A DNA stretch of 64,000 nucleotides, from positions 19,715 to 83,714 of the forward strand of contig JAGLVB010000005.1 of assembly GCA_023134135.1 (NCBI GenBank). Direction: 5' to 3'. Positions 5,002 through 45,132 of the stretch are shown one piece after another; position 1 is the stretch's first letter; every line of letters starts with the position of its first letter. Source of the stretch: Candidatus Aenigmatarchaeota archaeon. GTDB taxonomy: Archaea; Aenigmatarchaeota; Aenigmatarchaeia; QMZS01. A program made the translations under genes and the position numbers. The notes under the pieces were generated by a model. The model was given only the letters and a program-made list of their open reading frames with translations. It did not search any database and was not told where the DNA came from.

Positions 5002-5511
5002 TTAAATCCCAAACGAAATTGTTTTATCTAGTTTATCTTTCTTTTCCCTGGTTAAAAAGCCAATCTTGTCCCTGAAAATTTCGCACCTGCTTTTTCCCTC
5101 AATATACAATGAATAATATCCGCCACTATTATAAATTACTGAATTTACATTCTCAGAATCCAAAAGTTTTTTTAGATTTTCAAGTTGTTCTCTTTTACCG
5201 GACATCCTTATAATTCTGGTTACAATTGATATTGAACTCTTTCCCTCAAAAAATCCTCTTAAAAAACCAGTTCTTTCACCTTTATTCTCTAAATCAGGAA
5301 TTTTGGTCTTGTCAATGCCAAAATTTTTAATTAAATTTTTTCCAGTTATCTTAACTGAATAACCTCTCGAAGTGCTTTTCATAGTTGCAAGAGCTATCAG
5401 GCTGCAAATCAGCTCAGCAAGTTCCTTTCTTTTTGTCTGAATCTCAATTATATTCTTTGATTTCACTGAACCGCATGAATAAAGCAAACCAATAAGTTCA
5501 AGATTTTCCAT
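5002..5511 (-). CDS. Free-standing LAGLIDADG-like protein
   Basis: Two LAGLIDADG-type helices (LIGLLYSCGSV near the N-terminus and GFLRGFFEGKSS mid-protein) in a 169-aa ORF. No host gene or intein context. Confidence 0.4.
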   Translation of the reverse strand: MENLELIGLLYSCGSVKSKNIIEIQTKRKELAELICSLIALATMKSTSRGYSVKITGKNLIKNFGIDKTKIPDLENKGERTGFLRGFFEGKSSISIVTRIIRMSGKREQLENLKKLLDSENVNSVIYNSGGYYSLYIEGKSRCEIFRDKIGFLTREKKDKLDKTISFGI

Positions 5512-6847: not shown

Positions 6848-7780
6848 TCAGAAAACAGAAAATGAACTCAATACCACAAATTTGATTATATAAAACAAAG
6901 TCAAATCTATTACCAACAGCATGCCAATATATTTAAGCCCCGCAAGTTCTTTTCCTTCCTGAATCAATCCAATCAATATCCCGCCGAATATTGAAGATAT
7001 AATCATCATGGCTATGGAATAATAAAGAAGAAATTCCTCAGATAAATTAACGCCAGACATAGTCAATTGAATTGCTCCTGTTGCCATTGGCTCATCAGGC
7101 AGAACGCCCCCCAGACCGATTAATGTTTCAGTTAGAAACAATGATGCTGAATACAACAAAGGAGCTCCAAAACTCAACGCAAGAAATATAAACATTGAAT
7201 AAGCAGTCACCTGCGCTTTTATCTCTTTCCTCAACATAGAAGTGCTTTTTATATCATCAGCGAGACCTTCAAGCAACAGAGAAAGACTGCTGCCCTTTAC
7301 AATTCCTTCCACTATCAGATTTGATGTTTTCCTTAAAACCGGAGAATTTATTTTCGCAGGGATTGCCTCAAAAGCATCTTTTATCTGCCGCCCCACAATC
7401 AAAAATTTCCCAGCTTCATTTATCTGTTCGCTAAGCGGACCAAACTCCGGTCTGGCACTCACAAGCAAAGCTTTCTCTGGAATTAACCCCGCTCTTAAAT
7501 TAGAAGAAATTAATCTCAATGCGTCAGGCAACATCTCATCCGCCAAAGAAGCCCTCTTGTTTGAAACCATCACCAAAGTAAGATGCATTATACCTTCAAC
7601 AACAAGCAAAATCACCAAAGGAATTATGCAATAAATCCATCCAAAGAAAAGATATAAAGTCAACCCAAATATTAAAAATATCAATGGAAGCGAAGAGGTA
7701 ATTTTAATGAATGTATCGCTCTCCATCTTTATCCCACTATATTTTATATATTTCTTAACCCACTCAGCATACCTTCCCAT
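6848..7780 (-). CDS. Type IV filament platform protein, single T2SSF domain (TadC/FlaJ-half-like)
   Basis: Polytopic membrane protein with a soluble T2SSF-like segment (LRLISSNLRAGL...). Immediately downstream of a similar gene and the secretion ATPase. Confidence 0.7.
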   Translation of the reverse strand: MGRYAEWVKKYIKYSGIKMESDTFIKITSSLPLIFLIFGLTLYLFFGWIYCIIPLVILLVVEGIMHLTLVMVSNKRASLADEMLPDALRLISSNLRAGLIPEKALLVSARPEFGPLSEQINEAGKFLIVGRQIKDAFEAIPAKINSPVLRKTSNLIVEGIVKGSSLSLLLEGLADDIKSTSMLRKEIKAQVTAYSMFIFLALSFGAPLLYSASLFLTETLIGLGGVLPDEPMATGAIQLTMSGVNLSEEFLLYYSIAMMIISSIFGGILIGLIQEGKELAGLKYIGMLLVIDLTLFYIIKFVVLSSFSVF

Positions 7781-7782
7781 AA

Positions 7783-8613
7783 TTATTCTATCCGGGGTCT
7801 TTTTGATTTAACAACCCCTATAAACACAAACTGGAAAACAACAATAACCAACAATATCAATGCTAAAAGCCCTTCATTTATCGCAAAATTAGAAAAAAAT
7901 GAAAGGATAATCAGGAAAGTGATTCCTATTGAAGGTATTATTATTGCAAAAATCATATACACTAAAGCGAGGGAATTTAACTGACCCCCATACATCTTAA
8001 TTTTAGTCTTCTGTTCAAGAGAATATTCTTTCACAAGTTCTTCAATAGTGCCTGAAAGATCAGAACCTGAACGAATAGCATTAAGTATCTGCCAGAGCGC
8101 CCTTCTAAAATTTATGCTTGGATTTTTAATCATCAGCTCTTCAAGAGCCTGCGTTTCAGAAACCCCATATGAAATATTTCTTACCAATTTTGAAAATTCA
8201 ACAGACACTGCGCCGTAATCTGATTTGCTCAACGAGACAAAAGAATCATAATTATTAATTCCTGACCTCATCTCAACCAGCAAATGCCTTAAAGAAAAAA
8301 GAAGATTTGCTTCAATATCCAACACTCTCTTTGAAACAATCATGCTTGGACCTAAAAGATTATATATAAAAACAACTGCTGATATAAAGACAGGAATAAA
8401 AACCACAAAACCTATAAAATTACCTCCCGGACTCACAATAAAATTAAATAAAAGCATGATAATCAAACCAAAGAATCCGAAAAAGAATGAAGTTATTATT
8501 GATTTGCCAAGATATTCATCAGCAGATACCTCCATCTCAGCCTGTTTCAACCTGACACTTAAACTTGGAAATAAGGGAAGTAAAAGTTTCCCTATTTTTT
8601 TCGCCCTTTTCAT
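7783..8613 (-). CDS. Type IV filament platform protein, single T2SSF domain (TadB/FlaJ-half-like)
   Basis: Membrane protein with a T2SSF-like soluble segment (LRHLLVEMRSGINNYDSF...ALWQILNAIRSG). Its stop lies 2 nt from the next start, and its start overlaps the ATPase stop. Confidence 0.7.
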   Translation of the reverse strand: MKRAKKIGKLLLPLFPSLSVRLKQAEMEVSADEYLGKSIITSFFFGFFGLIIMLLFNFIVSPGGNFIGFVVFIPVFISAVVFIYNLLGPSMIVSKRVLDIEANLLFSLRHLLVEMRSGINNYDSFVSLSKSDYGAVSVEFSKLVRNISYGVSETQALEELMIKNPSINFRRALWQILNAIRSGSDLSGTIEELVKEYSLEQKTKIKMYGGQLNSLALVYMIFAIIIPSIGITFLIILSFFSNFAINEGLLALILLVIVVFQFVFIGVVKSKRPRIE

Positions 8614-10088
8614 TTTATTTTTTTCATCAATTTCTCCGGGTCTTTTATATAAGAAGTTATATATCTCTCAACAGAATCCGCATCTTTAATCTTTTTTTTA
8701 ACCAAATATTCGAGCACTTTTTTGCGGTTATCAAGTTCTTTTGCTATTCCTATATCATCAAATCCCGTCAATATCTTTAACTTATTAATAGCTTTCCTGC
8801 TTTCATGATATTTAAATATCTGATCTGATTTAGGATTCCATTTATACAATATGTTTATTTTCTCGAAATTTTTGCCTTTTGAAAATGGTATCTCAGCTAT
8901 TTCATAAACTCTCCTTATACCTTTTCTCCTATCCCTAAACATAACAACAAACAAATCTATTGCATCAAGCAGGGTTTCAGGAATGGATATTGGGGGATTA
9001 ATTAATCTCCTGTAAGTCTGAACCGCGGTATCAGCATGAATGGTTGAATAAACACTATGACCTGTGTGCATAGCTTCAAATAATACTTCCGCCTCCCTGC
9101 TTCTCCTTATTTCACCAACTATTATCCTGTCCGGTCTCATCCTAAGGGAGTTTACAAGCAAATCCAGCATATCAATCTTACCCTTCCCTTCCTGATTTGG
9201 TTCTCTCGTGATCATAGGCACCCAATGCAAAAAACCAGGCAATTTTATTTCTCTTGTATCTTCTATTGAGATTATCCTTTGGTTTGGCGGGATAAATGGC
9301 ATCAGACTTGTTAAAAAACTTGTTTTTCCGGTTCCGGTTCCCCCAGATACAAGAATATTTAATTCATATTGGATTGACAGCCAAAACAAAGCCGCAACTT
9401 CAGCATCAAGGGTTTTATTTGAAATAAATTCTGAAATTGTCCACGGAATCTTCCTGAATTTCCTGATTGTTATTGTATTCCCGTCATTTGAAATTGGGGC
9501 TAAAGTGGCATTCACCCTGTCGCCGTTCGGAAGATGAGCATCCAGTAAAGGAGTAAGATTTGTAATCTGTCTCCCAACTTTTCTCCCGATAATTGAAGAA
9601 TAATTCAGTATTTCATCTTCGCTCTTTGGAGTTATATTTGTAACAAGCCACCCGAATTCCCTATGATACACCTGCGCAGGTTCTTTGCTTGAATTAATTA
9701 CCACTTCTTCAAGCGCTGGATCCTTCAACAGGATTTCCAACCTGCCCAAACCAAGCATCTCATGAACTATCATTCCAACCATATAATTTTTCTTGTTTTC
9801 TTCAATTTTTGGAATAAGTTTTTCCACTTCATTTCTCGCTTTATCTCTGAAATCATCACTTATCTTTTTCTTTTTATCCAAAGTGTTATAAGAAACCAAT
9901 TGGAGTTGGGTTATCAATCTCTCTTTAATTTCTTCGTATACTGCTCTGGTGCCTTCATCCAATTCCAAAAAGTTGATAATATAATTTGTAACAAACCCAT
10001 CTTTGCTTTTTGAAATCTCTACATCCACGCTATAATCCTCCAATCCAATCTTGTACTTACTTAACATGCTCCACCGATATTTTTCCAA
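8610..10088 (-). CDS. Type II/IV secretion-family ATPase (FlaI/VirB11/TadA-like)
   Basis: Walker A SGGTGTGKTS, Walker B/Asp box RPDRIIVGEIR, His box GHSVYSTIHA. 492 aa. Confidence 0.9.
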   Translation of the reverse strand: MEKYRWSMLSKYKIGLEDYSVDVEISKSKDGFVTNYIINFLELDEGTRAVYEEIKERLITQLQLVSYNTLDKKKKISDDFRDKARNEVEKLIPKIEENKKNYMVGMIVHEMLGLGRLEILLKDPALEEVVINSSKEPAQVYHREFGWLVTNITPKSEDEILNYSSIIGRKVGRQITNLTPLLDAHLPNGDRVNATLAPISNDGNTITIRKFRKIPWTISEFISNKTLDAEVAALFWLSIQYELNILVSGGTGTGKTSFLTSLMPFIPPNQRIISIEDTREIKLPGFLHWVPMITREPNQEGKGKIDMLDLLVNSLRMRPDRIIVGEIRRSREAEVLFEAMHTGHSVYSTIHADTAVQTYRRLINPPISIPETLLDAIDLFVVMFRDRRKGIRRVYEIAEIPFSKGKNFEKINILYKWNPKSDQIFKYHESRKAINKLKILTGFDDIGIAKELDNRKKVLEYLVKKKIKDADSVERYITSYIKDPEKLMKKIK

Positions 10089-11271
10089 ACAATGATTTCT
10101 TATATTTAATTAAATTGTGGTTTTCCAGTATCTCCAGCCACTCTTCTATTTTTTCCTCATCAATATTTAATCTTTCTTCCAGTTCTTTCATATTTGTCTC
10201 TTTTTTCCTTAAAAGATCTAAAAGTTTATCAACCTTTGTCTCAATTATATTTCCAATCACACCTTCATCTTCAGTTGAAAAAATATTTCTCGCCATTTTG
10301 TTCAATATTACGCTCCTCGTAACAACACCTACAACTTCTTTATGACTCATAACCGCAATACAGCCCGATTTGTGCAGATGCATACTAAGTATTGCTTTTG
10401 AGAGGCTATCTCCTTTAGCCAGACATATAAGATTGCCAATAATATCTCCTGCTTTTAGTTTTGCAATTTTTTTCTTTTTCCTCAATACATTAAGTATATC
10501 CGGGAGAATAATCAAACCTACAACTTTTCCTTTTTTTGAAATAAAAATGCCATTGCACTTCTTTTCAGAAAACATTCTCACCACCTCAACAACCGGAGAT
10601 TCAATATCCATAATCTCCGCTTTTTTCATAACCTCAGCAACAGTTACCGCATCCAATACATCTCTTCCGGATTTCTTTGTGTTTTTTTTAATTAATTGAT
10701 TCTTTGTTGTTTCATTCATTTTCTCCGACATTCTTCCCCGTTGCCTAGCAACGAGGGAAGATGCATCATTCGTTTTTGTGAATGAATGAAATGATGCACC
10801 GTCTTTTCTGACGAGTGTTCCTTTTTCTTTTGCAGTTGGTTTTTTTATTTCTTTTTGTTTTGTTTCCTTGGTAATTGCTCTTTCTATCTCCTTTGGTTTT
10901 GTTTCTTTGGTTACTTCTTTTGCAATTGGTTTATTTTTTTTTGTGGGGGTTGACTTCCTGAATAAAGACATAAATTTAGATTTAATATTGCTTCCCAATT
11001 TATTTTTATCTTCATTGAGTGACAACGTATGTTTGGATTTTTTTGGTGATTTTTTTTCATCAATTCTTTTAATTTTAGAATTGGAGTTCTTTGTTGAGGG
11101 TTTCTTTCTGGCTGCAGGTTTCGATTTTTTTATTGGTTTTGTTTTCCTTGCAACAGATTTCTTTGATCCTGTTTTCTCTGTTTGTTTTGATTTAACGGTG
11201 TGTTTTTTTAATTTTTCCTGTTTCTTCAATAACTCATTTAATCTGTCTGTAATATCATCTTCCTTATCCAT
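10057..11271 (-). CDS. Lysine-rich protein with CBS-pair domain
   Basis: N-terminal ~190 aa are K-rich and low-complexity. Two CBS-like modules follow (VAEVMKK...GLIILPDILNVL and GVVTRSVILNKM). The tail is possibly winged-helix. Start placed at the MDKEDD Met; the track ORF extends to 11304 and would overlap the divergent gene. Confidence 0.6.
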   Translation of the reverse strand: MDKEDDITDRLNELLKKQEKLKKHTVKSKQTEKTGSKKSVARKTKPIKKSKPAARKKPSTKNSNSKIKRIDEKKSPKKSKHTLSLNEDKNKLGSNIKSKFMSLFRKSTPTKKNKPIAKEVTKETKPKEIERAITKETKQKEIKKPTAKEKGTLVRKDGASFHSFTKTNDASSLVARQRGRMSEKMNETTKNQLIKKNTKKSGRDVLDAVTVAEVMKKAEIMDIESPVVEVVRMFSEKKCNGIFISKKGKVVGLIILPDILNVLRKKKKIAKLKAGDIIGNLICLAKGDSLSKAILSMHLHKSGCIAVMSHKEVVGVVTRSVILNKMARNIFSTEDEGVIGNIIETKVDKLLDLLRKKETNMKELEERLNIDEEKIEEWLEILENHNLIKYKKSLFGKISVEHVK

Positions 11272-11292
11272 AATTACCTTTAACTTATAATT

Positions 11293-11688
11293 ATGAAAGC
11301 CCAAGTGTCTATAGAATTCCTGATGGTCGTGGGTATTGGGATAATTATTGTATCTTCATATGTTGTTTACAGTTACCATGCTATTTATTCTTACAAAATA
11401 AACACAGATGTTAGCATCACTAAAGATGCGCTTAAAAAAATAAGCGAGAATTCAAATTTTGTTTTCAACCAGAGAAAACCCGCAAAGCATACAATCACCA
11501 TATGCCTGCCTGAAACTATAACCGGATGCTCATTGAACAACACTATTCTTGCATGTCATATAGGGGATAAAATGATATATGAAACCTCAGAAGTAAACCT
11601 AACCGGATGGATTCCCAACAATTCAGGATGTTATGAAATAAAACTGGTTGCTGAAGATACTTATGTAAATCTTGTTAAACCTGAATAA
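11293..11688 (+). CDS. Pilin-like protein, class III signal peptide (DUF361/Epd type)
   Basis: N-terminus MKAQVSIEFLMVVGIGIIIV: a short charged leader, Q-x-S-x-E-F, then a hydrophobic helix. Confidence 0.7.
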   Translation: MKAQVSIEFLMVVGIGIIIVSSYVVYSYHAIYSYKINTDVSITKDALKKISENSNFVFNQRKPAKHTITICLPETITGCSLNNTILACHIGDKMIYETSEVNLTGWIPNNSGCYEIKLVAEDTYVNLVKPE

Positions 11689-11695
11689 TATTAAT

Positions 11696-12064
11696 ATGAA
11701 AGCGCAGGCATCTGTTGAATTTTTGGTTTTGGTTGGGATATTGAGCCTGATATTTGTGATTATATTCGGTTATTCCGGAGGATATTACTTTTATTCAGAA
11801 AAACTGAAAGTTGAAGAAACATATGAAAATATATGCGATACAGTGAAACTCGAAATAGAAACCGCTCTTGAAGTAGGGCCTTATTACAGCCGTACTTTCT
11901 ATCTTGAACCCGGAGACCACGCAGTTTCAATACAAAATTATGAAGTTATTGTCAGCAAAGATAATCTGATAAAAATCTGCTATATACCGATAAATATCTC
12001 GGCAAATCTAAATAATGGTGAAAATACTATAATATATAATGAAACGGGCGTTTCCTTTGTATAA
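11696..12064 (+). CDS. Pilin-like protein, class III signal peptide (DUF361/Epd type)
   Basis: MKAQASVEFLVLVGILSLIFVI at the internal ATG 11696. The track ORF starts at 11672. Confidence 0.7.
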   Translation: MKAQASVEFLVLVGILSLIFVIIFGYSGGYYFYSEKLKVEETYENICDTVKLEIETALEVGPYYSRTFYLEPGDHAVSIQNYEVIVSKDNLIKICYIPINISANLNNGENTIIYNETGVSFV

Positions 12065-12506
12065 AGGTCAGATTTTCTCCTTTGACTTCCTTATTGCCTG
12101 TTCAATATTTATACTTGTTCTTGCGATTCTGATTAGTCATATTGGGTATAATACCATGCAACTAAATGAATTAAAAGAAAAGCGCGAATTGACTCAAAGC
12201 GGTTATAAGCTAAGTGAAATATTTTTTATGGAAGGGTATCCAAAAAACTGGAATGTTAGCAATGTTGAAATTATAGGTCTGCAGACAAACAACCGGATTG
12301 ACTGGAACAAATTAAAAGAACTTGAAAACCTTGGATACCAGAAAAGTCTGATATTGCTTGGTCTTAAATATGATTATAACCTGACTATTGGAAATTATAC
12401 TTTCGGAAAAAATCCTGAAAATGCGTCTTCAGCTTTTATAATAAACCGTGTTGGAATTCTAAATTCATCTGTTGTTTCTATACAGGCGGTAATTTTTAAA
12501 ATATGA
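12039..12506 (+). CDS. Pilin-like protein, class III signal peptide
   Basis: MKRAFPLYKGQIFSFDFLIACSIFILVL: KGQ-x-x-S-x-D-F plus a hydrophobic helix. Overlaps neighbours in operon fashion. Confidence 0.6.
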   Translation: MKRAFPLYKGQIFSFDFLIACSIFILVLAILISHIGYNTMQLNELKEKRELTQSGYKLSEIFFMEGYPKNWNVSNVEIIGLQTNNRIDWNKLKELENLGYQKSLILLGLKYDYNLTIGNYTFGKNPENASSAFIINRVGILNSSVVSIQAVIFKI

Positions 12507-15211
12507 GAGGTATGGTTTTTTCTCTTGATATAATAATCGGAATTTCTGTTCTGATAGTTGTACTTACCTCAAGCTATTATCTTTTCTCAGTTCCTGAAGT
12601 TCATGAAGAAATTGAATATGAGCAAATGAATCTGTTGTCAAATGATTTCCTGAATTCAATGGCTGAAATAAAAGTATTTGAAGCCGCAAACCAGAGCGAA
12701 ACAATAAACAATATGATAACAAATAATAATCTGACTGAAGATGAACTGGAATTGAGCGTTCTTGATCTTGTCTTAACTTACTGGGGAATATACAAAGATG
12801 AAAATGATTTGTTAAAAAAAGAAATTGCCGAAAATATAACTGAAGAAATAATAAATTCAATCTCAATTTTAGACAACCTTGAGTTTAGTTTAATTATAGG
12901 AAATGATTTAATCACGGGAAATCATTCTAACAGTTCAGAATCTTTATCTGTATCCAGCCTGATTGAAAACACTTATGGTTCAGGACCGAAATATGGCTAT
13001 ATTGCAAGAGCATATTTAAGTGGGATTAAAACAAACAAATCAAGGTATCTATATTTTGGGGGATTTGTTGGGCAGGGTAATTTAAATTTTAACCTGAACA
13101 TCCCGGAAACCGCAGGAGAGATTATGTCCGCTTATATAGAAGTTTACTCAGGTTCAAACTTTTCATTGTATATCAACGGGAATTTCTCCGGGAATTTCTC
13201 GCCTGACAATACAACTGGAAACTTCAGCGCAAATATAAAAAGCGCAGATATTAATTTGTCAAACTTCATAAAAGGAAATAACACAATTGAGATTAATTTC
13301 AACTCCGCAAATATTACCGAGCAATATCTTGGAGGGGGTTTCCTTAAAGTGGATTATAATTCAACAGAACTTTACGAGGAAAAAGAATCCGGGAAGATGA
13401 AATATTATTTCCCTGGAATTAAAGGAATCATGAACCTTTATGATGGATTTTATGTTAATGGTGATTTGAATAATATTTCTGTCTATTTGCATTATTATAA
13501 TAATATAACCGGCAGTGTATTTTATTTAACAATCGCAAATGCAACAATTTTTGAGAGCAATAATACAGGAGAAATAAATATTACTCTAAATAATTCAGAT
13601 ATAAATTCTTCAGTAACCAGTGCTGGACTAAGCTATACAAATATCAGTAAAACAACAATTCCTTTAAGATTTGGTATAAGATCTATTGACTTTATGGAAC
13701 AGGAAACTGGAAATGCAGATATTGTTTTGATAACCGATGTTTCAGGAAGTATGGCTTATTGTGTGGAAAACAATAGTGATTGTTCCTCAGGCAATCAAAG
13801 AATTGACTTGGCAAAACAACTGGATAAAGAATTTATTGAAATTATCCTTAATACCACAGGGAACAGAATTGGTTTAGCGGACTATAGAGATAAGGTTGAA
13901 AGTAGTCATTCCTTATCAACAAACAAAACAAGTTTATTTGAGCAAATAGATAAATATGAAGCTGAGAAAGGAACCTGCATTTGCTGTGGGCTAAACGAAG
14001 CTTATGAAATGTTAGAACCTCCAAAGAGCAATTCTTCAAGGCAGAGGTTTGTAGTTATAATGACTGATGGTATACCAAGCCATAAGTGTGCAGACTCAGG
14101 GTGTGAAGGGATTAAAACTAAAGGTGTATTTAAAGGTGATTGTTATGGTTGCACTTATTGCTGTCCTGCTGACCCGGATACTGGGTCAAATTGCGATTGC
14201 CCAACTTCTCAGAGTTGTGGTGAATGTGGTTGTTATTCCTGGTCTGGTTGGTGGTGTCATATACACCCAACTTGTTGTGAGCATACTTGCAGTTGTACTT
14301 GTGAATCTTGTTGTCAACAAAGTTGTAAATGCAGTTGCGAAATGCAAAATGCAAATTTCTCAAGTTGCAGGCTCCACAATGATTTAAATACAACGGTGCA
14401 TTCAATAGGTTTTGGTCCTATCGCAAACTGCCAGATGGGAAATACAACACTAACTGCAATAGCAGATTGCGGAAATGGAAATTATTATGCCAGCCAGAAT
14501 TCCTCTGAACTGCAGGAAATTTACAGAAATATTGCTGCATCAATTGTTTCAATAAGTTATACAACCCAAAAAATCAGTGTTGAAGGAAATATTAGCCTGA
14601 CAGGAAATATTCTTTATAATGATTCTTATATGGAATTTTTTTATAATGAATCAAAACCAGAATTTGATTACGGTGAATTTTCTATATCTTTTGAAGAAAA
14701 TTGCATTGACTCTATATGCACCCTGAAAAAGAACCCGGAAACGCAGGTACTGGAAGCAAAAGTAACTTCTTACTCGGCTGATTACTGGACAAACCTGCTT
14801 GTCCTTACCAATTCCACCCCTGAAAATATAACAATATATAATTTATCAACATATGGATTTTATGAAAACCTTGGAGACCCATTTATATTGGATATTCCTG
14901 TTGAAAAAATATCCAATGAGATAAACAGCATTTACATATTTCTAGGAATAAATGAAACAGACAGAATATCTGGTTTAAATGACAGCAAATTGATATATTC
15001 ATTAAAAGTCCCAGGTTCAGTTAATTATGGCGATATATTTAACAGCTCTTACAATGCTGAAGAAGATGCAAAACAAAGACTGAAAGATAGCATATATAAT
15101 CTGACAGGGCAAAACATTTCAATTCTTACCAATACAGACACCAATGTTATAAGAGGTATAAGAACAATATCAGATGCAAACCTTGTAAAGTTTGTAATAG
15201 GGAAAAAATAA
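12503..15211 (+). CDS. Large pilin-like vWA-domain protein with cysteine-rich insert (tip adhesin candidate)
   Basis: N-terminus MRGMVFSLDIIIGISVLIVVL is pilin-like. vWA MIDAS DIVLITDVSGSM and VVIMTDG are present. The 96-aa insert has 23 Cys. Roughly 40 N-x-S/T sequons by eye. Confidence 0.8.
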   Translation: MRGMVFSLDIIIGISVLIVVLTSSYYLFSVPEVHEEIEYEQMNLLSNDFLNSMAEIKVFEAANQSETINNMITNNNLTEDELELSVLDLVLTYWGIYKDENDLLKKEIAENITEEIINSISILDNLEFSLIIGNDLITGNHSNSSESLSVSSLIENTYGSGPKYGYIARAYLSGIKTNKSRYLYFGGFVGQGNLNFNLNIPETAGEIMSAYIEVYSGSNFSLYINGNFSGNFSPDNTTGNFSANIKSADINLSNFIKGNNTIEINFNSANITEQYLGGGFLKVDYNSTELYEEKESGKMKYYFPGIKGIMNLYDGFYVNGDLNNISVYLHYYNNITGSVFYLTIANATIFESNNTGEINITLNNSDINSSVTSAGLSYTNISKTTIPLRFGIRSIDFMEQETGNADIVLITDVSGSMAYCVENNSDCSSGNQRIDLAKQLDKEFIEIILNTTGNRIGLADYRDKVESSHSLSTNKTSLFEQIDKYEAEKGTCICCGLNEAYEMLEPPKSNSSRQRFVVIMTDGIPSHKCADSGCEGIKTKGVFKGDCYGCTYCCPADPDTGSNCDCPTSQSCGECGCYSWSGWWCHIHPTCCEHTCSCTCESCCQQSCKCSCEMQNANFSSCRLHNDLNTTVHSIGFGPIANCQMGNTTLTAIADCGNGNYYASQNSSELQEIYRNIAASIVSISYTTQKISVEGNISLTGNILYNDSYMEFFYNESKPEFDYGEFSISFEENCIDSICTLKKNPETQVLEAKVTSYSADYWTNLLVLTNSTPENITIYNLSTYGFYENLGDPFILDIPVEKISNEINSIYIFLGINETDRISGLNDSKLIYSLKVPGSVNYGDIFNSSYNAEEDAKQRLKDSIYNLTGQNISILTNTDTNVIRGIRTISDANLVKFVIGKK

Positions 15212-15217
15212 GAAATA

Positions 15218-18200
15218 TTATGAAAGAAACCAGATATTATTAAATTTCTTGAATTCAATTATTTCTTTTCCACTTAAACTTCCTGCTTTTTGGTAAGGTT
15301 TTACTGGAATTTCTAAACTAATAGTTGCTTCTCTTGGTAAAGTGTTAATATCTATTCCTTCTAAAGATAATTCTCCCTCTATATAGAACCAATTCTTTTT
15401 AAATTTCTCCTTAGATTTTTCATAGGGTAACCAATAAATAAATGCCCTTTTAATATCAATTCCTGTATTTAAACTATCATCCACTTTTATTTTCCATTTC
15501 CAAGGTTCATGATAAAACCAAAAATTTCTGAATTCTTTAAAAGTTACTTTATCTTTTCCTTCTTTATCTGCAATCTTAAAATATAAAAAAGCTGATTTAT
15601 TTATGTCCTTTTTTTGGTAATCTTCGGGTAATTCAAAGCTCCCTAAGATAGTAAACTTGGTATTATCCTTTGAATGTTTACTTGAATAAACTATTTTTAT
15701 CTTTTTAATCAAGAAAGATTCCATTGATTTTGGAACAACTTTGAAAGTTGCCATGTCTTCTTTAACATTTCCACTTTTATCAGTTGCTACGACCCTTAAT
15801 ATGTGTTTAGTTTCACCTAAATATTTACCTAAATCTATTGAATATTCAGTATAAACTTCTTCGTCTAAATAAAGTTTTACTTTCGGATTTAGGTCACAAA
15901 TATCACTAACTGCATAATTTATTAGTACTGGTTCTTGTTTATTTAAATAAATAATTTCCTTTGGTGAAATAATATTTACTTCTGGAGGACAAGTATCTAT
16001 TACAGTAACAGTTGAATTGCCAATTCCTATTCCTCCATCATCATCAATTATAAAGATAGCAACTGTATAATTATTTGCAATACAGTATTTATGATTTCCT
16101 TTAATATTATCCATTCCATTTCCTTCTTCAATGGTCCCTTCGTCAATTGTTCCGTCGCCCCAATCAATTTTAGCAGTATGAGTATCTAACAAACCGAGAT
16201 CATTAAAAGAAGCATTTAATGAAATCACATCTAAACAGCATTCAACAGTTTGATTTAAAATAGTTTCAATTATTGGAGGAACATTTTTGACTGTAATATT
16301 AGCAATGTCGGTAGCAGTAAATTCTCCATCGTTGATTTCTAATTTAACTATACCACTATAATCATCATCCCAAGTATAATTAACAATTGGGTTAATTGAC
16401 CAACCGGTATCCCAAATTCCATCATTATTAAAATCCCATCTATATTGAAGAACATCTCCATCAGAATCGTAAGAACCAGAACCATTAAATGTTATTGAAG
16501 AGCCCTCATAATTTTCATAAGGACCATTAGCATCTGCTATTGGCTGTAGATTCTTCTTTATTTTAACTGTTTTTTGTACTGAATCTCTTATTCCATTATC
16601 ATCCACTACAGTTAATATTACACTATAATTAGCTGGAGAAGAATAAAAATGGGTAACCACCTCTCCATTTTCTATTTCTCTATCTCCAAACTTCCATCTA
16701 TAAGAAACAATTAAACCGTCTGAATCATAAGAGGAAGAAGCATTAAAGGTTATTTCTTTGTCAACTATAATATTTTCTGAAGAATAGGTAAATAATGCAA
16801 CAGGAGGTTGATTTATATTAATTATTTCATTCACATTAGGAATTTTTTCCTCGTCTATTTCCCCATCTCCATCATAGTCTATACTCATTGTATAGTTTAT
16901 AACATTTGACTCTATTTTAACCAAAACTCTTGTATTTTTGGTTATTGATATATTTCCAAATTTTGTTATAGAAATATTATTTTCAATTGGTGAAACTTTT
17001 GTGAATTTGAATTTACCTGCATCATATGCGTCTATCCTAACAGAATAAATAATGTTTATTGGCAAGTAGAATATCTTCGTCTCATTTGTTATAAATATGC
17101 TTGCATTTGGTATTTCATTTGTTCCGTTGTCTGAGATAATCCTATTGTATTGATCAGTGATTGTAACATTTATAGGGCACTCAAAGATAAGCACATGATT
17201 ATATATACCAAAATTGATTATTGCTTGTTCATCAACTTTATAATTCTCACATGGTTCTATCAACGGATAGTCATCTAACGACTTCTTTAGAAGTCCCATA
17301 TAATAAGGAGTGTCACCAATTCCATCATTATTTGTGTCTGATTCAGCATAATCATCCCAATAATTTCCTATATAATTTTTGAATTGTATATTATTGTAAA
17401 TATAATCTATTTTTAAAGGGGAAGAATCCCAAAAAGATGATTCTGCATCAGGACATAGAACTGGAAGAATTCCTTTGTTATTTATAAAATTATTAGGAAG
17501 AATTTTGTTACCGTATGAGTCAAACAGATTTATTACTTTCTTGTTGCTTACAAAAGTATTCTGTATTACATTATTTTCAACACATGGTATGGCAAAGGCT
17601 GCATGTCCCGAAGGACCTTTTAAGACAACCCCAAAATCATTTGAGTCTATTTCATTATGTGCTATTATATTAAAAGAAGAACCATAAATATGAACCCCAA
17701 AATGATTATTTAGTATCTTATTTGAGGATATACTGCAACGATGACAGGATGGACCAATATGTATCCCAGCAGGTTCTGACCACCAAGAACCTTTTGCACC
17801 CTCAATAGTAAACCCACTTATTTTTACAGGTCCCCATAAGGAATGCACAAAGAATACATCAGTATTTTGGTCTTTAGCTTGAACCAGCGTATCCTCAGGA
17901 TTTCCAGAAGTTGATTTAATAGTTAGTGATTTAGAAATATCCACATTTTCTACATAAATCCCGGGATCAACTATAATTGTATCTCCATTTTTTGTATTGG
18001 AATCATCTATTGCAGCTTGAATTGTTGGAAAGTCCTCGCCGGTATCAAGATTGTGAATTGGTAATTTTGTTGATTCAAAATAAGTCTCAAAAGGTTCCAT
18101 TAGAGGATAATTATCGCCACCAGATTCTATTATGTAGGGACTATCTCCAAGTCCATCTCCATCTCCATCAACTCCTTCATAATCCTCCCAATAATTACCT

Positions 18201-18859
18201 AAATAGTTTGTGTAAGTGTTACCTTTATAGGTATAGATTATTTTTTCTGGGTAATTCCAGAGATTAAATTCACTACCAAAACCATTAAGTTTATCTCTAA
18301 AGTTATTGAGGTAAGCTTTGTTATTTTTTGGGCACCAACAGCCACCCTCCACACAAATACCAATTAGACCTATGTTAAATTTGTTTGGTCCAATAGTGTT
18401 CCTATAAATTTTGTTATCGGTAGTTGGAGTTAAACTAATTCCTATGTTGTTATTCGCTATGATATTGTTTTTGATTGTGTTATTGCTTGAAACTATTGTA
18501 ATTCCAGTTAATGGACCCATCTTTCCATTAGCTCCTTCAACTGTAAACCCATCTATAGTTACATAATCCGCAGTTACTACAAAAACAGAATCCTCTGAAT
18601 TCTTAGCTTGAACAATCGTCTTTTCAGCTCCATTTTCTGATTTTATAGTTAAGTGATCTTTACTGACTTTAATATTTTCTCTATAACTCCCATCTCCAAT
18701 AATTATAATATCTCCAGAATTTGCAGCATCAACTGCTGCTTGAATAGACGAATACTCATCAGGTACATATAAAATTACTGCAGAGACTACTTCTACAAAA
18801 CTCAAACTAAAAACAAATGTAATTATTAACAATATAATTTTTTTATTTGGTGTTCCCAT
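15218..18859 (-). CDS. Secreted surface protein: two right-handed beta-helix (NosD/PbH1-like) modules plus PKD domains
   Basis: Signal peptide present. Each helix module shows beta-helix repeat patterns (NNTIKNNIIANNNIGISL) and ends in DGDGDGLGDSPY or DTNNDGIGDTPYY. PKD signatures are FNASSSYDSDG..YRWKFGD, FNGSGSYDSDG..YRWDFNNDG and IDWGDG. Confidence 0.8.
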   Translation of the reverse strand: MGTPNKKIILLIITFVFSLSFVEVVSAVILYVPDEYSSIQAAVDAANSGDIIIIGDGSYRENIKVSKDHLTIKSENGAEKTIVQAKNSEDSVFVVTADYVTIDGFTVEGANGKMGPLTGITIVSSNNTIKNNIIANNNIGISLTPTTDNKIYRNTIGPNKFNIGLIGICVEGGCWCPKNNKAYLNNFRDKLNGFGSEFNLWNYPEKIIYTYKGNTYTNYLGNYWEDYEGVDGDGDGLGDSPYIIESGGDNYPLMEPFETYFESTKLPIHNLDTGEDFPTIQAAIDDSNTKNGDTIIVDPGIYVENVDISKSLTIKSTSGNPEDTLVQAKDQNTDVFFVHSLWGPVKISGFTIEGAKGSWWSEPAGIHIGPSCHRCSISSNKILNNHFGVHIYGSSFNIIAHNEIDSNDFGVVLKGPSGHAAFAIPCVENNVIQNTFVSNKKVINLFDSYGNKILPNNFINNKGILPVLCPDAESSFWDSSPLKIDYIYNNIQFKNYIGNYWDDYAESDTNNDGIGDTPYYMGLLKKSLDDYPLIEPCENYKVDEQAIINFGIYNHVLIFECPINVTITDQYNRIISDNGTNEIPNASIFITNETKIFYLPINIIYSVRIDAYDAGKFKFTKVSPIENNISITKFGNISITKNTRVLVKIESNVINYTMSIDYDGDGEIDEEKIPNVNEIININQPPVALFTYSSENIIVDKEITFNASSSYDSDGLIVSYRWKFGDREIENGEVVTHFYSSPANYSVILTVVDDNGIRDSVQKTVKIKKNLQPIADANGPYENYEGSSITFNGSGSYDSDGDVLQYRWDFNNDGIWDTGWSINPIVNYTWDDDYSGIVKLEINDGEFTATDIANITVKNVPPIIETILNQTVECCLDVISLNASFNDLGLLDTHTAKIDWGDGTIDEGTIEEGNGMDNIKGNHKYCIANNYTVAIFIIDDDGGIGIGNSTVTVIDTCPPEVNIISPKEIIYLNKQEPVLINYAVSDICDLNPKVKLYLDEEVYTEYSIDLGKYLGETKHILRVVATDKSGNVKEDMATFKVVPKSMESFLIKKIKIVYSSKHSKDNTKFTILGSFELPEDYQKKDINKSAFLYFKIADKEGKDKVTFKEFRNFWFYHEPWKWKIKVDDSLNTGIDIKRAFIYWLPYEKSKEKFKKNWFYIEGELSLEGIDINTLPREATISLEIPVKPYQKAGSLSGKEIIEFKKFNNIWFLS

Positions 18860-18922
18860 AATTTATTTTTTATTCATATTATTCAAAATCTTAAACATAA
18901 ACATATTATTTTGTTAAGTATT

Positions 18923-19741
18923 ATGAGAGTGGATAATTTTATTTCAGCATTTTTTTTACTAATTTTCTTTTTAATTCCAATCCATGCTATAGATATTACA
19001 ACAATTTCTTTTTCTCAAAACATAACTGAAATTTTACCATGTTTTACAGCAGATAAAACTAAAATATTTGTTACACATTTTTCAGCAGAAAAAAATGAGA
19101 CTAAAGAAGTGCCAATTTATATTACAAGCGTTAGTAATCTATCAGAAGTTGTTGTTTTTATCAAGTATAATAATAAGGTAATAAAACCTGATTATATCTC
19201 TGATGGAAACTTTAACATTAGTTATATGGTTGAAGATGAAATAAAAATAAATCTTAACTTAAACGAAACTTTTACAGGAGATTTTTTGTTGGCAAAGATT
19301 TTTTTTAAAGCAATAGGTGATGGAGGAGAAAGCACTTCTATTACTATTGAAGTTGACAAGTTTCTGGATAATAATTCAAATGAAATTATTTACTTAACCT
19401 TGAATGGTATGTTTAGCATAAACCTTGAATATGCGGAAGAAACAAAAGATTCTGAAGGAGGGGTGGACTCCAGTCTTGAAGGTCTAATAAACTCAGACAA
19501 TCCCGCAGAATATGCTGAAAAAAATAATCTTGAATTTGAAGACGGAAAAGTCAAAGTTGTGATGGAGACAAATGATTCAAAAGAAGAAAAATTTGTAAGC
19601 ATAGATGAACTCAACAATCTTACAAACAATGAAACCATCACAAGAATCAGCCCTTACAGGGAGATTCCTGTAAAAGAAATAATTATTATACTTGCAATTA
19701 TAATCCTGTTAATTATTCTTATTTTAAAACTTCGAAGATGA
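18923..19741 (+). CDS. Cohesin-like domain protein with C-terminal membrane anchor
   Basis: Signal peptide present. Cohesin-like beta-sandwich pattern (VPIYITSVSNLSEVVVFIKYNNKVIKP...FLLAKIFFKAIGDGGESTSITIE). Acidic linker, C-terminal TM plus KLRR. ATG at 18923; the track uses TTG at 18911. Confidence 0.5.
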   Translation: MRVDNFISAFFLLIFFLIPIHAIDITTISFSQNITEILPCFTADKTKIFVTHFSAEKNETKEVPIYITSVSNLSEVVVFIKYNNKVIKPDYISDGNFNISYMVEDEIKINLNLNETFTGDFLLAKIFFKAIGDGGESTSITIEVDKFLDNNSNEIIYLTLNGMFSINLEYAEETKDSEGGVDSSLEGLINSDNPAEYAEKNNLEFEDGKVKVVMETNDSKEEKFVSIDELNNLTNNETITRISPYREIPVKEIIIILAIIILLIILILKLRR

Positions 19742-20967
19742 AAGGGGTTTTGTTTTCAGTGATATTTACGCTTATTTTAATAGTTGTCCTCTCTCTGGTA
19801 TTATTGCAAAGAGAAAATGTTTCTTATGAAAGACATAATATATTTTTAACCCAGGAAATCAAGGATTTGAAATACACTTATAACAGCATTGAAAGAAGTA
19901 TCCACATATTATCAGATGTCACTGTAAAAAGAGCTGTAATTTCATCTTTAAATGAGATTATAGACAGCGGAAGTTTTTTTGCGGATAACAAAACAGAAGA
20001 GAACCTTCTCGAACTTATCTGGAACGGAACTTTGAACGGGACAAATATTTCCGGAATGGGGGATAATACTTTAAGCAATAGCATATCCGAACTTGAAATA
20101 TTTTATAAAGACACCAAAGATTATGATATAAGCATAAACCTTAAACAAAGCAAAATATCGCTAGACAACTCTTTTTACATCCTGTTTAGTGCAACTGCTG
20201 AGATTAATATTTCTAAAGAAGGACTTGCAAGGATTTCCAAAGAAGTTGAAATAATTGAAAAGGTATGGATTGATGATTTTGAAGACCCTCTTTATCTTAT
20301 AAATATAACTGCGGGCAAAGGTTCCAGAAAAATAAAGAAAAGCGAATATATTGGTGATTTTTCAGAATTGATTTTAAGCGGAAATACTGAAAGCGGGTGG
20401 TGTTATGGGGAACTTGTAATTACCGATAATATAACAACCATTCCTGATAAAGATGAAAAGATTGCTGTTGTTGCAACTGCTTTGATTTACTCTCCCTCTG
20501 AAATAAATGATTTTTGCGGAATAATCTCTGAAAGCAATTTTCCTGCAAATGTTACAATACCCCGTCTTAAAAATAATAATGCAACAACCATATTGATTGA
20601 CAATTCAAACATTTTACTGTCCGGGGGGAAAGGCAAAGTCTGGAATATAAGCAATTTTATTAAACATGTTGATAACAAAAGATATATAAACTCAACCTCA
20701 GGTCCGAGTTTCTTTGACAGGATGGAAGGAAAAAATTACTGCTCCTATTGTTCAGCAAATCGCAGTGTTGGGTTGGAAAGTTTTGCTGATAAAAATGAAT
20801 TGTTAAGTTACGGGATTGATGTGGAAGTGGATGCAACAAATATTGAATATCTTTATATGAATATTACCTCTGGAGTTGATGTTGGACTGGATGAAAGTAA
20901 CACCGGAGTTACTGAGTTTAAATATTTTAGGATTGATGAGGATTCGATTGAGAGGTATTTTAAATAA
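19738..20967 (+). CDS. Pilin-like/N-terminally anchored extracellular protein
   Basis: MKGVLFSVIFTLILIVVLSLVLL N-terminus (KG followed by a hydrophobic helix). The sequon-rich 409-aa body has no recognisable domain. Confidence 0.45.
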   Translation: MKGVLFSVIFTLILIVVLSLVLLQRENVSYERHNIFLTQEIKDLKYTYNSIERSIHILSDVTVKRAVISSLNEIIDSGSFFADNKTEENLLELIWNGTLNGTNISGMGDNTLSNSISELEIFYKDTKDYDISINLKQSKISLDNSFYILFSATAEINISKEGLARISKEVEIIEKVWIDDFEDPLYLINITAGKGSRKIKKSEYIGDFSELILSGNTESGWCYGELVITDNITTIPDKDEKIAVVATALIYSPSEINDFCGIISESNFPANVTIPRLKNNNATTILIDNSNILLSGGKGKVWNISNFIKHVDNKRYINSTSGPSFFDRMEGKNYCSYCSANRSVGLESFADKNELLSYGIDVEVDATNIEYLYMNITSGVDVGLDESNTGVTEFKYFRIDEDSIERYFK

Positions 20968-21730: not shown

Positions 21731-22138
21731 TTAGTTATGTATAATTGCAGTATCTGTGTGTGTTAAAGTACTTAACCTATCTACATAAGTTAAATTCATA
21801 TAGATGTCTGACGTACTTGTATCACTTATATTTATTTTAAACTGCTGATTTGCCGATATATTCATGAGTGCAACACCTTCTATACTACAAGTTCCTCCGC
21901 TAATAGTGCAGCCTACATTATTCAAATCTCTGGGACCATTTTTGATTATTAAATCACCTTCAGCATAATCCACATATGCAAATTTTGAGAAACAAGGACT
22001 GCAAGGCATTGCTGAACTGCTTGGATTAAATACCCCCATTGAATAAAGCGCTGCTATTGCTATTACAACTATCGCTATTGCGATACCATAAGTCATTAGA
22101 TATTCTAAGGAAACTTGTCCTTTTCTTGTATCAATCAT
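21731..22138 (-). CDS. Major pilin candidate, class III signal peptide (DUF361/Epd type), paralogue 1
   Basis: MIDTRKGQVSLEYLMTYGIAIAIVVIAIAALY. 135 aa. The first 51 aa are identical to the neighbouring paralogue. Confidence 0.8.
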   Translation of the reverse strand: MIDTRKGQVSLEYLMTYGIAIAIVVIAIAALYSMGVFNPSSSAMPCSPCFSKFAYVDYAEGDLIIKNGPRDLNNVGCTISGGTCSIEGVALMNISANQQFKINISDTSTSDIYMNLTYVDRLSTLTHTDTAIIHN

Positions 22139-22229: not shown

Positions 22230-22637
22230 TTAGTTGTGTATTGTTGCTATGTCGGTGTGTGGTAATCCGCTCAAGGCATCAGTATAACTTAAAGTCAGGG
22301 GTACATTCTGCTCGGTTTTATTACCTAGAGTTATTTTAAATTGTTGATTTGCTGATAGGTTTACTAAGGCAAAACTGTCAATATTGCAGGTTCCTCCAGT
22401 AACATTACAATATACATTTTCCAAAGCCCTAGGTCCATTTTTAATCATTAACTCGCCATCAGCATAATCCACATATGCAAAACTTGAGAAACATGGACTG
22501 CAAGGCATTGCTGAACTGCTTGGATTAAATACCCCCATTGAATAAAGCGCTGCTATTGCTATTACAACTATCGCTATTGCGATACCATAAGTCATTAGAT
22601 ATTCTAAGGAAACTTGTCCTTTTCTTGTATCAATCAT
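22230..22637 (-). CDS. Major pilin candidate, class III signal peptide (DUF361/Epd type), paralogue 2
   Basis: Same N-terminal 51 aa as 21731..22138 with a diverged C-terminal globular part. 135 aa. Confidence 0.8.
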   Translation of the reverse strand: MIDTRKGQVSLEYLMTYGIAIAIVVIAIAALYSMGVFNPSSSAMPCSPCFSSFAYVDYADGELMIKNGPRALENVYCNVTGGTCNIDSFALVNLSANQQFKITLGNKTEQNVPLTLSYTDALSGLPHTDIATIHN

Positions 22638-32747: not shown

Positions 32748-33074
32748 ATGAACAAACAAGTTATTATTTTAAGCATGGCTCTTATTCTCCTGATAAGTAT
32801 TATCTATTTTTTTGCTCCCGGAACTTATCAAAACGATTTCAACTGTAATACTTATTGCACCCTGCAATATTGGGATGGAGGTGTTTGTGAATGGCCTATC
32901 TTTATGGAAAAAGATAAATTTGAAGCGTGGGTAATTAAAATAAACAAACCTGAATTAACATTTCCATATTCCAGTGTTATGAATATGGGTCCGTGCGTGG
33001 TGAAAATTTTTAGTTCTCATTCCATCCACTGCGGCAGCGAAGGTCAATGCAATTGTTACTGTTTCAATAAATAA
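32748..33074 (+). CDS. Small secreted cysteine-rich protein
   Basis: Signal/anchor helix, then 9 Cys in about 80 aa, ending GSEGQCNCYCFNK. Confidence 0.4.
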   Translation: MNKQVIILSMALILLISIIYFFAPGTYQNDFNCNTYCTLQYWDGGVCEWPIFMEKDKFEAWVIKINKPELTFPYSSVMNMGPCVVKIFSSHSIHCGSEGQCNCYCFNK

Positions 33075-45106: not shown

Positions 45107-45132
45107 ATATTCTTTGACAATAAAAATTAAAC

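Follow-up and report, generated by a model that had tools for sequence, protein, structure and literature searches.

A cysteine-rich arm beside the predicted metal-binding site of a pilin-like von Willebrand factor A protein from a DPANN archaeon

In the βI domain of integrin β-subunits, a disulfide-bonded insertion beside the metal-ion-dependent adhesion site (MIDAS), the specificity-determining loop, sets the ligand specificity. Among pilus-tip proteins with a von Willebrand factor type A (vWA) domain, RrgA (2ww8), GBS104 (3tvy), PitA (7w6b) and Mfa5 (6tnj) carry insertions round the MIDAS that are thought to shape ligand binding. PilB of Streptococcus sanguinis (7b7p, PMC8179133), a modular minor pilin whose gene belongs to a type IV pilus locus, has a vWA domain with a canonical MIDAS grafted onto its N-terminal pilin module, and protruding arms flank that MIDAS. 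The vWA domain of the type IV pilus tip-associated protein PilY1 of Pseudomonas aeruginosa is unusually rich in cysteines, and disulfides have been proposed to control mechanical behaviour both in PilY1 (Cys147/Cys152) and in the A2 domain of von Willebrand factor (vicinal Cys1669-Cys1670; PMC9210963). Here, we analysed a 64,000-nucleotide stretch of contig JAGLVB010000005.1 of a Candidatus Aenigmatarchaeota archaeon (hereafter the window), which encodes a pilin-like vWA protein with a segment of 96 residues and 23 cysteines beside its predicted MIDAS. We think it fairly probable that this segment is a disulfide-stapled, tryptophan-rich and glycan-free arm, comparable to those of PilB and RrgA, through which the recognition of a ligand or host is tuned.

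The host protein and its vWA domain comprise the following elements:

12503 to 15211, plus strand: gene of the pilin-like vWA protein, an open reading frame (ORF) of 902 residues (Pfam, AlphaFold2 and 286 homologues)
12503 to 12586, plus strand: N-terminus resembling a class III signal followed by a pilin α1 helix, MRG and then MVFSLDIIIGISVLIVVLTSSYYLF (read from the sequence)
13715 to 14572, plus strand: vWA domain including the insertion, residues 405-690 (Pfam, Foldseek, and AlphaFold2 from βA, 405-412, to α7, 667-683)
13736 to 13750, plus strand: MIDAS motif DxSxS (D412 V S414 G S416), with D412, S414 and S416 invariant in 53 sequences
13973 to 13987, plus strand: MIDAS Thr491 followed by the CICC motif (C492, C494, C495), each at least 90% conserved in the 53 sequences
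14042 to 14071, plus strand: strand βD and MIDAS Asp522-Gly523 (FVVIMTDG; AlphaFold2 strand 514-521), with D522 at least 90% conserved and G523 invariant
14333 to 14386, plus strand: helix α5, residues 611-628, with C612 and with NANFSSC, which includes the sequon at N618 and C622 (predicted local distance difference test, pLDDT, above 90)
14393 to 14413, plus strand: strand βE (VHSIGFG; AlphaFold2 631-637), with G636, F637 and G638 at least 90% conserved

The full-length AlphaFold2 model was built on the 53 homologues and has a mean pLDDT of 84. It orders the protein into an N-terminal hydrophobic helix, a helical bundle, a β-sandwich, the vWA domain and a C-terminal β-sandwich. Pfam matched residues 406-527 with both VWA_2 (43.6 bits, cutoff 27) and VWA (37.2 bits, cutoff 23.8), and a VWA_3 tail at residues 628-662 scored below threshold. 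The elements of the domain follow one another in the model as βA (405-412), α1 (433-449), βB, βC, an α helix (493-504), βD (514-521), α5 (611-628), βE (631-637) and α7 (667-683). This α/β Rossmann-like fold has a pLDDT of about 85-95 on either side of the insert, and Foldseek matched it to many vWA structures with a probability of 1.00. The nearest solved neighbours of the model include the pilus adhesins PilB (7b7p, E 5e-11), PitA, Mfa5, RrgA and GBS104, of which PilB was also weakly matched by sequence. The DxSxS motif, T491 and D522 make up a complete predicted MIDAS, in agreement with an earlier note on this DNA that had placed the insert in a vWA domain, next to its MIDAS face. The DxSxS motif is followed by a loop with C420 and C427, which we call arm 1 and which is short in the window protein.

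Translation of positions 14081-14368 (plus strand) agrees exactly with the 96 residues and 23 cysteines (24%) reported in that note, and contains three CC pairs (553-554, 591-592 and 603-604) and six CxC motifs. The segment corresponds to residues 527-622 of the ORF, which has 32 cysteines in total. With a background cysteine frequency of 1.4% (68 non-overlapping ORFs of the window), the probability of at least 23 cysteines in 96 residues is about 1e-21; the second-densest stretch of 96 residues in the window has 11. The location between VVIMTDG and VHSIGFG is confirmed by the Pfam vWA matches on both sides and by the order of βD, α5 and βE in the model, and the canonical vWA fold has nothing that corresponds to the insert, as had been claimed. 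Its extent had been drawn only partly right. According to both the alignment and the model, the inserted material proper spans residues 524-610 (nucleotides 14072-14332, 87 residues, 21 cysteines), and the final 12 residues that had been counted with it (611-622) are the beginning of the canonical α5 helix. The protein had also been called giant; with 902 residues it is large, not giant. Since the insert starts one residue past the MIDAS Asp-Gly, directly after strand βD, it emerges on the MIDAS face, and the suggestion that it lies beside the MIDAS and could cap or shape ligand binding is supported by this onset after Asp522-Gly523.

The arm can be divided as follows:

14072 to 14194, plus strand: conserved base of the cysteine-rich arm, residues 524-564, IPSHKC..GC.G....F..DCYGCTYCCPADPDTG..C (invariant columns among long connectors)
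14195 to 14317, plus strand: hypervariable core of the arm, rich in cysteine and tryptophan, residues 565-605, indel-rich among close relatives and gaining cysteines in even steps
14273 to 14344, plus strand: two tandem 12-residue units, CCEHTCSCTCES and CCQQSCKCSCEM, with the motif CCxxxCxCxCE

In the full-length model the pLDDT of the base is 79-90, declining to about 60-70. The 87 residues of the insert include three tryptophans, three tyrosines, one phenylalanine and four histidines, i.e., tryptophan is enriched about 17-fold and histidine reaches 4.6%, compared with 0.7% elsewhere. Tryptophan makes up 7.3% of the core, which has neither lysine nor arginine and no N-glycosylation sequon. 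The protein as a whole has 42 such sequons and the insert none (4.5 expected, P = 0.011), which makes the insert its sole long sequon-free stretch. The tryptophan enrichment, the core without Lys and Arg and the absence of sequons fit an exposed contact surface. Just past the arm, NAN[FWY]SSC contains an N-[FWY]-S sequon (14354-14362, residues 618-620, NFS) that all long-connector members of the family have and the short-connector ones lack.

We found 286 significant homologues of the vWA protein with a word-indexed search, and at least 327 loci in GTDB species representatives of Aenigmarchaeota, Woese-, Pace-, Nano-, Micr-, Parv-, Nanohalo- and Altiarchaeota. We class the family, on sequence grounds, as a pilin-like vWA protein of type IV pilus loci that is spread across DPANN archaea. 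Measured from βD to βE, the connector forms a graded series:

31-32 residues, 2 cysteines: short-connector relatives
62-70 residues, 7 cysteines: most Aenigmarchaeota-type members
about 80 residues, 13 cysteines: intermediate forms
90-97 residues, 17-19 cysteines: intermediate forms
108 residues, 23 cysteines: the window protein and two orthologues (P0002 and P0015)

The highest cysteine count of the connector in the 67 GTDB loci that we measured is 17. By this measure, the arm of the window protein is the extreme end of a common family trait. C529 and C622 are already present as a pair in the members with a connector of 31-32 residues and are an ancestral pair. The alignment of 14 long connectors has a conserved base (IPSHKC..GC.G....F..DCYGCTYCCPA.P.TG..C) and a conserved end (C.C.CE.QNAN[FWY]SSC) that leads into helix α5, which itself aligns with the DAIQAAC of short-connector relatives. 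At an overall identity of 69%, all 23 cysteines are conserved and the other positions of the arm are 66% identical. The two tandem units near the end of the arm share 23 of their 36 nucleotides, the best in-frame self-match of the gene (z about 4.4). Since the first unit is missing in the relatives with 19 cysteines, an old tandem duplication of 36 nucleotides probably accounts for part of the last expansion.

Other members of the family carry different inserts near the MIDAS. Three proteins of 1164-1451 residues (P0006, P0007 and P0010) were compared with residues 1-507 and 620-902 of the window protein. They are 70-75% identical to it over residues 1-507 (75% in the P0006 group), i.e., more than its full-length orthologues are. 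A module of 360-630 residues is nested between their helix α4 and βD (DUF2341 in P0006 and P0010; about 600 residues, just ahead of βD, in the P0006 group), and a short connector with two cysteines follows βD. This suggests module swapping or recombination among the adhesin genes of closely related genomes. In a second group of 1190-1230 residues (P0052, P0055-P0059, P0062-P0063 and others, from Micrarchaeota, Pacearchaeota and other lineages), a BNR/Ycf48-like β-propeller of about 300 residues lies within the βD-α5 loop itself. It is flanked by short cysteine-containing linkers that resemble the base and the end of the arm. In a third group (P0043, P0099, P0107, P0112 and P0097), a cysteine-rich insertion with up to 10-11 cysteines is found in the other MIDAS-flanking loop, directly after DVSGSM, and the βD-α5 connector is short. 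Because relatives carry propellers or cysteine-rich inserts there, both MIDAS-flanking loops are hot spots for variable modules.

We searched for the insert outside this family. On its own, it matched only two of 1.84 billion representative proteins with HMMER, and both are family members (P0012 and P0033); the composition filters of HMMER may hide weak cysteine-rich matches. A profile of the 14 connectors had no match in a set of 5.8 billion proteins, where it missed known family members too and so does not count as evidence of absence. Five connector variants matched no Pfam family at E ≤ 10, searches of the PDB with the connector by sequence and by profile gave no match, and the single hit across the Pfam and PDB searches (E 5.5) was due to chance. 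The insert is thus, as far as these searches reach, not a free-standing or portable module, and we have no evidence for a mobile one. More specifically, no knottin, hevein (CBM18) or granulin profile of Pfam matched the five variants, nor did a PDB entry, and the insert lacks the hevein signature C-x(4,5)-C-C-S-x(2)-G-x-C-G. The ferredoxin-type pattern CxxCxxCxxxCP is also absent: the nearest stretch, CYGCTYCCP, reads CYGWGCCCP in close relatives, and there is no Fer4 match in Pfam. As for metallothioneins, the insert contains aromatics and histidine, is a loop of a predicted exported protein of 902 residues and has no corresponding Pfam profile. We found no description of a DPANN or archaeal vWA pilin or of its cysteine-rich insert in the literature, and a census of archaeal type IV pili from 2016 mentions vWA only for ArnB-type regulators. 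The earlier note had envisaged that the insertion might belong to a common, already described vWA subfamily: a shorter version of it is indeed common in a large DPANN subfamily, and the published description is the part that we did not find.

The number of cysteines in the domain, which we regard as decisive between disulfides and metal, is almost always even. Counting every cysteine from the MIDAS strand up to the domain end, also those in nested inserts, gives an even number in 110 of the 117 homologues (values of 8-32) and in 66 of the 67 independently fetched GTDB loci (6-24). An excess of even counts is an established signature of disulfide pairing (PMC3177088; PMC2823432). Totals of 14, 18, 22, 26 and 30 occur, which are not multiples of four, unlike what is expected of sets of Cys4 metal sites. 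The long-form connector alone has nearly always an odd number of cysteines (7, 13, 17, 19 or 23) and the conserved CICC motif adds three; therefore, at least one bond should link the arm to CICC. In the group of P0044 the CICC motif is reduced to one cysteine, i.e., two were lost together, and between sister groups CYGCTYCC is replaced by CYGWGCCC, so that the positions of the cysteines shift and their number stays constant. Even numbers prevail, too, in the remaining predicted surface proteins of the window (4, 2, 14, 4, 4, 4, 18, 8, 6 and 12). Even parity favours disulfides over a metallothionein-like cluster, and we infer about 13 disulfides, which would tie the 23 cysteines of the arm and the three of CICC into a knot.

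The earlier note had preferred a metallothionein or metal cluster to a disulfide loop, a preference that these data do not support. In such a metal-thiolate site, metallothionein-like or of the Fe-S or Zn type, the cysteines would stay thiolates in a reducing habitat and bind metal beside the MIDAS, with metal capture, mineral attachment or metal-gated adhesion as proposed roles. A cysteine content of 24% with CC, CxC and CxxC motifs and the enrichment in histidine are in line with it, as are two weak hints of anaerobiosis: relatives come from hydrothermal and hot-spring metagenomes, and genes for ferredoxin-type Fe-S proteins lie nearby. The even counts, and their not being multiples of four, speak for pairing. 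Further, the seven aromatic residues in 87 set the insert apart from classical metallothioneins, the histidines are not conserved (CHIHPT, CHWHPT, CHSYPT), CxxCxxC is not conserved either, and the change from CYGCTYCC to CYGWGCCC in sister forms leaves no fixed ligand geometry. The lack of a Pfam or PDB match and a protein that is predicted to be extracellular and glycosylated add to this, and we regard a metal-thiolate site as quite improbable.

In the reading that we favour, the vWA domain of a pilin-like type IV pilus protein has a βD-α5 loop that was enlarged in a lineage-specific way, in a DPANN archaeon near Aenigmarchaeota. The loop begins at the MIDAS Asp and would project from the metal- and ligand-binding face. 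The 21 cysteines of residues 524-610, C612, C622 and the three of CICC would all be paired, in some 13 disulfides, giving a rigid knot resistant to heat and proteases, with a conserved base and a hypervariable, tryptophan-rich and unglycosylated tip. This insert (arm 2) would act like the MIDAS-flanking arms of PilB and RrgA, building and diversifying the surface that contacts the ligand, possibly at the tip of the pilus. The ligand presumably belongs to the surface of the host cell, and remodelling of the arm between lineages would set the binding specificity. The loop would have grown step by step through indels and, probably at least once, a tandem duplication, with cysteines always added in even numbers.

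The parity evidence for disulfides is also compatible with a purely structural staple, in which the knot stabilises the MIDAS loops against heat, proteases and pulling force without contacting a ligand. The base of the arm is conserved and, by inference, cross-linked to CICC, and thermophilic archaea commonly have surface proteins rich in disulfides (PMC3177088; PMC4858521). Stabilisation alone leaves unexplained, however, the indel variation of the tip among close relatives, its richness in tryptophan and lack of sequons, and the presence of binding-type modules (propeller, DUF2341) near the MIDAS in other members. We thus hold a staple without ligand contact to be unlikely, and prefer an arm that takes part in recognition.

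Several points weigh against a disulfide-bonded recognition arm on a pilin. The N-terminus of the vWA protein has no pilin match in Pfam (Pilin_N, Class_IIIsignal). AlphaFold2 modelled the connector alone with a pLDDT of 43, and in the full-length model the values fall below 50 for residues 569-603, which coincides with the indel-variable core. Faster substitution of the arm was not seen among close relatives (66% identity at non-cysteine positions, compared with 62-68% elsewhere), and its diversification, as far as seen, is by indels. The proteins behind the parity counts share ancestry; when they are reduced to 95 distinct states of length and count, 88 are even. The habitat is possibly anoxic, which puts in question the source of oxidising power for the disulfides, and no DsbA, VKOR or thioredoxin-type gene was found among the roughly 50 ORFs scanned in the window, which is a part of the genome.

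A knot of this kind might also be a force- or redox-sensitive switch, with strained, possibly vicinal disulfides that isomerise or open under pilus tension or reduction and so gate the MIDAS. The concept has been reviewed for the A2 domain of von Willebrand factor and for PilY1 (PMC9210963), and the arm offers its three CC pairs and a CICC motif beside the MIDAS Thr. CC pairs need not bond to each other, however, we identified no retraction ATPase in the locus, and given its low AlphaFold2 confidence the arm is in effect unmodelled; we judge the switch to be very improbable. In a broader form, the roughly 26 cysteines of the MIDAS face (arm and CICC) would be an element responsive to redox state, force or metal rather than a static knot. 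In a reducing, metal-rich habitat the arm would flip between a thiolate, metal-bound form and a disulfide-locked one, toggling the adhesion of the pilus to the host. We give this only a slim chance; if true, redox state or metal would gate an adhesin outside the cell, for which archaea offer no precedent.

The possibility had been raised that the segment is low-complexity DNA or a misassembly. Its GC content is locally higher (41.7%, compared with 33% for the gene) and ORFs in another frame and on the other strand overlap it (14067-14387, plus strand; 14130-14405, minus strand), as might be seen in an assembly or frameshift artefact or in meaningless low-complexity filler. The worry is dispelled by other data. 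The identical protein is present on four contigs, among them an ENA scaffold of 84 kb, and all 23 cysteines are kept in frame in orthologues from independent assemblies, i.e., in an independent Logan assembly (P0002, 69% identical, with the same operon order) and in a metagenome-assembled genome of Aenigmarchaeota (P0015). Tandem Repeats Finder reported a single weak match of 20 bp in the DNA of the segment, which is not repetitive, and the vWA fold picks up again in frame past the insert. An artefact has in our view next to no probability. Separately, a tandem-repeat or slippage origin was ruled out at the DNA level, except for the old duplication of 36 nucleotides, and an intein or a mobile element was ruled out as well (no such motifs; frame and fold continue). 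The two overlapping ORFs, and a third one over the gene of a CBS and helix-turn-helix (HTH) regulator (10868-11290, plus strand), are most likely spurious, as a side effect of the higher local GC content or as antisense of real genes.

The vWA gene shares its locus with genes for the secretion ATPase of a type IV pilus, for a TadC/T2SSF platform and for further pilins:

6848 to 10088, minus strand: pilus assembly genes by Pfam, T2SSF/TadC-like (6848-7780 and 7783-8613) and T2SSE ATPase (8610-10088)
11293 to 11688, 11696 to 12064 and 12039 to 12506, plus strand: three small pilin-like genes of the same operon, upstream of the vWA gene (MKAQVSIEFL, MKAQASVEFL and KGQIFSFDFLI)
18911 to 20967, plus strand: downstream partners, a protein of 276 residues (signal peptide and C-terminal transmembrane helix) and a pilin-like protein of 409 residues (MKGVLFSVIFTLILIVV)

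The T2SSF genes, the T2SSE ATPase and the CBS-HTH regulator are upstream of the pilin operon and divergent from it. The three small pilin-like genes keep their synteny in an orthologous locus (L001), with 54-63% identity, and the downstream partners are 57-59% identical to the genes immediately 3' of the vWA gene in that locus. The order of the operon is kept in an independent assembly. The N-terminus of the vWA protein itself (MRG, followed by MVFSLDIIIGISVLIVVL) has a short leader ending in Gly and then a hydrophobic helix (residues 2-28 in AlphaFold2), with the family consensus KGxxFxLDAxIA, and its neighbouring genes have weak pilin-type matches in Pfam. Pfam has no pilin match for the protein itself; its description as pilin-like is in keeping with this leader and helix, and it sits in a type IV pilus locus. 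No gene for a peptidase of family A24 was identified among the ORFs scanned in the window.

Two tandem pilin genes of 135 residues lie past the downstream partners (21731-22138 and 22230-22637, minus strand). They share identical first 50 residues (MIDTRKGQVSLEYLMTYGIAIAIVV...) and 80% of their DNA (328/408 nucleotides), have diverged C-terminal halves, four cysteines each and a weak Class_IIIsignal match, and are probably the major pilins of the locus. The vWA gene is separated from its downstream partners by a gene on the opposite strand (15218-18859, minus strand) for a surface protein of 1213 residues with NosD/parallel-β-helix, three PKD domains and 14 cysteines. This gene looks inserted into the pilus operon, because in L001 the partners directly follow the vWA gene. 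The regulator-like gene (10057-11304, minus strand) lies between the pilus ATPase gene and the divergent pilin operon. The first 200 or so residues of its product are rich in Lys and probably disordered, and CBS and winged-helix domains (TrmB/DUF4423-like) come after them.

Further away, a protein of 183 residues (54608-55159, minus strand) has a pilin-like N-terminus (MRGVNVIIGEIYLISIVIVILS) and no Pfam family. It is another cysteine-rich surface protein, with 11 cysteines in the roughly 60 residues of its C-terminal tail, including CGNGYCDSAIGEDAINCPVEC. A protein of 108 residues (32748-33074, plus strand) with an N-terminal hydrophobic segment has eight cysteines and no Pfam match. The region 43395-45879 (minus strand) encodes two neighbouring P-loop proteins of the MinD/ParA type, which have ferredoxin-like 4Fe-4S inserts (11 and 12 cysteines), and a Nitro_FeMo-Co (NifB/X-like) protein; the Pfam scan covered the latter and the first P-loop protein. 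These genes are a weak hint of an anaerobic lifestyle. A free-standing ORF of 169 residues (5002-5511, minus strand) has a LAGLIDADG_3 homing-endonuclease-like domain. The housekeeping genes of the window are archaeal (Kae1, aIF5A, RadB-like, Trm1, Trm5/TYW2, TYW3 and Rpp21). The closest relatives are annotated as Aenigmarchaeota; among species-representative genomes, LH_S7 and LH_S6 come out best, with 57-58% identity.

DPANN archaea spend their lives on other archaea, and little is known about how they recognise a host cell and hold on to it. Where the pilin-like vWA family varies, it does so in the loops round the predicted metal-dependent site, which hold cysteine-rich arms, a nested propeller or, in other members, a module with DUF2341. 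The arm of the window protein is the most extreme cysteine-rich one that we have seen and is, judged from its sequence, a concrete candidate for a determinant of host specificity. Archaea of this kind, probably anaerobes, appear to make heavily disulfide-bonded surface proteins, which raises the question of how these are oxidised. The window protein offers a handle on both host recognition in DPANN archaea and extracytoplasmic disulfide formation.

How does the window protein compare with known systems? It is closest to PilB: in both, a pilin or pilin-like N-terminus precedes a vWA domain with a MIDAS, and by its domain order in the model and its insertion directly after Asp522 the window protein resembles a modular pilin adhesin of the PilB type. 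PilB is bacterial, has 420 residues and lacks a cysteine-rich arm, and disulfides come up nowhere in the paper that describes it. The window protein is archaeal, has 902 residues, extra β-sandwich domains and an arm of 21-23 cysteines without predicted regular secondary structure. RrgA, GBS104, PitA and Mfa5 belong to sortase and type V pili, whose assembly is unrelated, and their arms are β-hairpins or β-sheets, not cysteine knots; the likeness drawn here is between arms round the MIDAS in general, whether or not they use the βD-α5 loop. PilY1 is not a pilin, and its many cysteines are spread through the vWA domain (PMC9210963), whereas about 26 are concentrated in one loop and CICC in the window protein. 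Metallothioneins, knottins, hevein and granulin share the very high density of cysteines with CC and CxC motifs, and hevein also the aromatics between them, but no family model matches the insert, which did not recur as an independent module in the search of 1.84 billion proteins. The specificity-determining loop of integrins has one disulfide, occupies another loop of the vWA-type fold and is eukaryotic. A vWA adhesin on a pilus with arms round the MIDAS is an already known design, and the window protein is an elaboration of it, not a new kind of system. What is new is an archaeal, DPANN-wide family of pilin-like vWA proteins, of which we found no description, the probable use of densely disulfide-bonded loops as variable arms, and the extreme of 23 cysteines.

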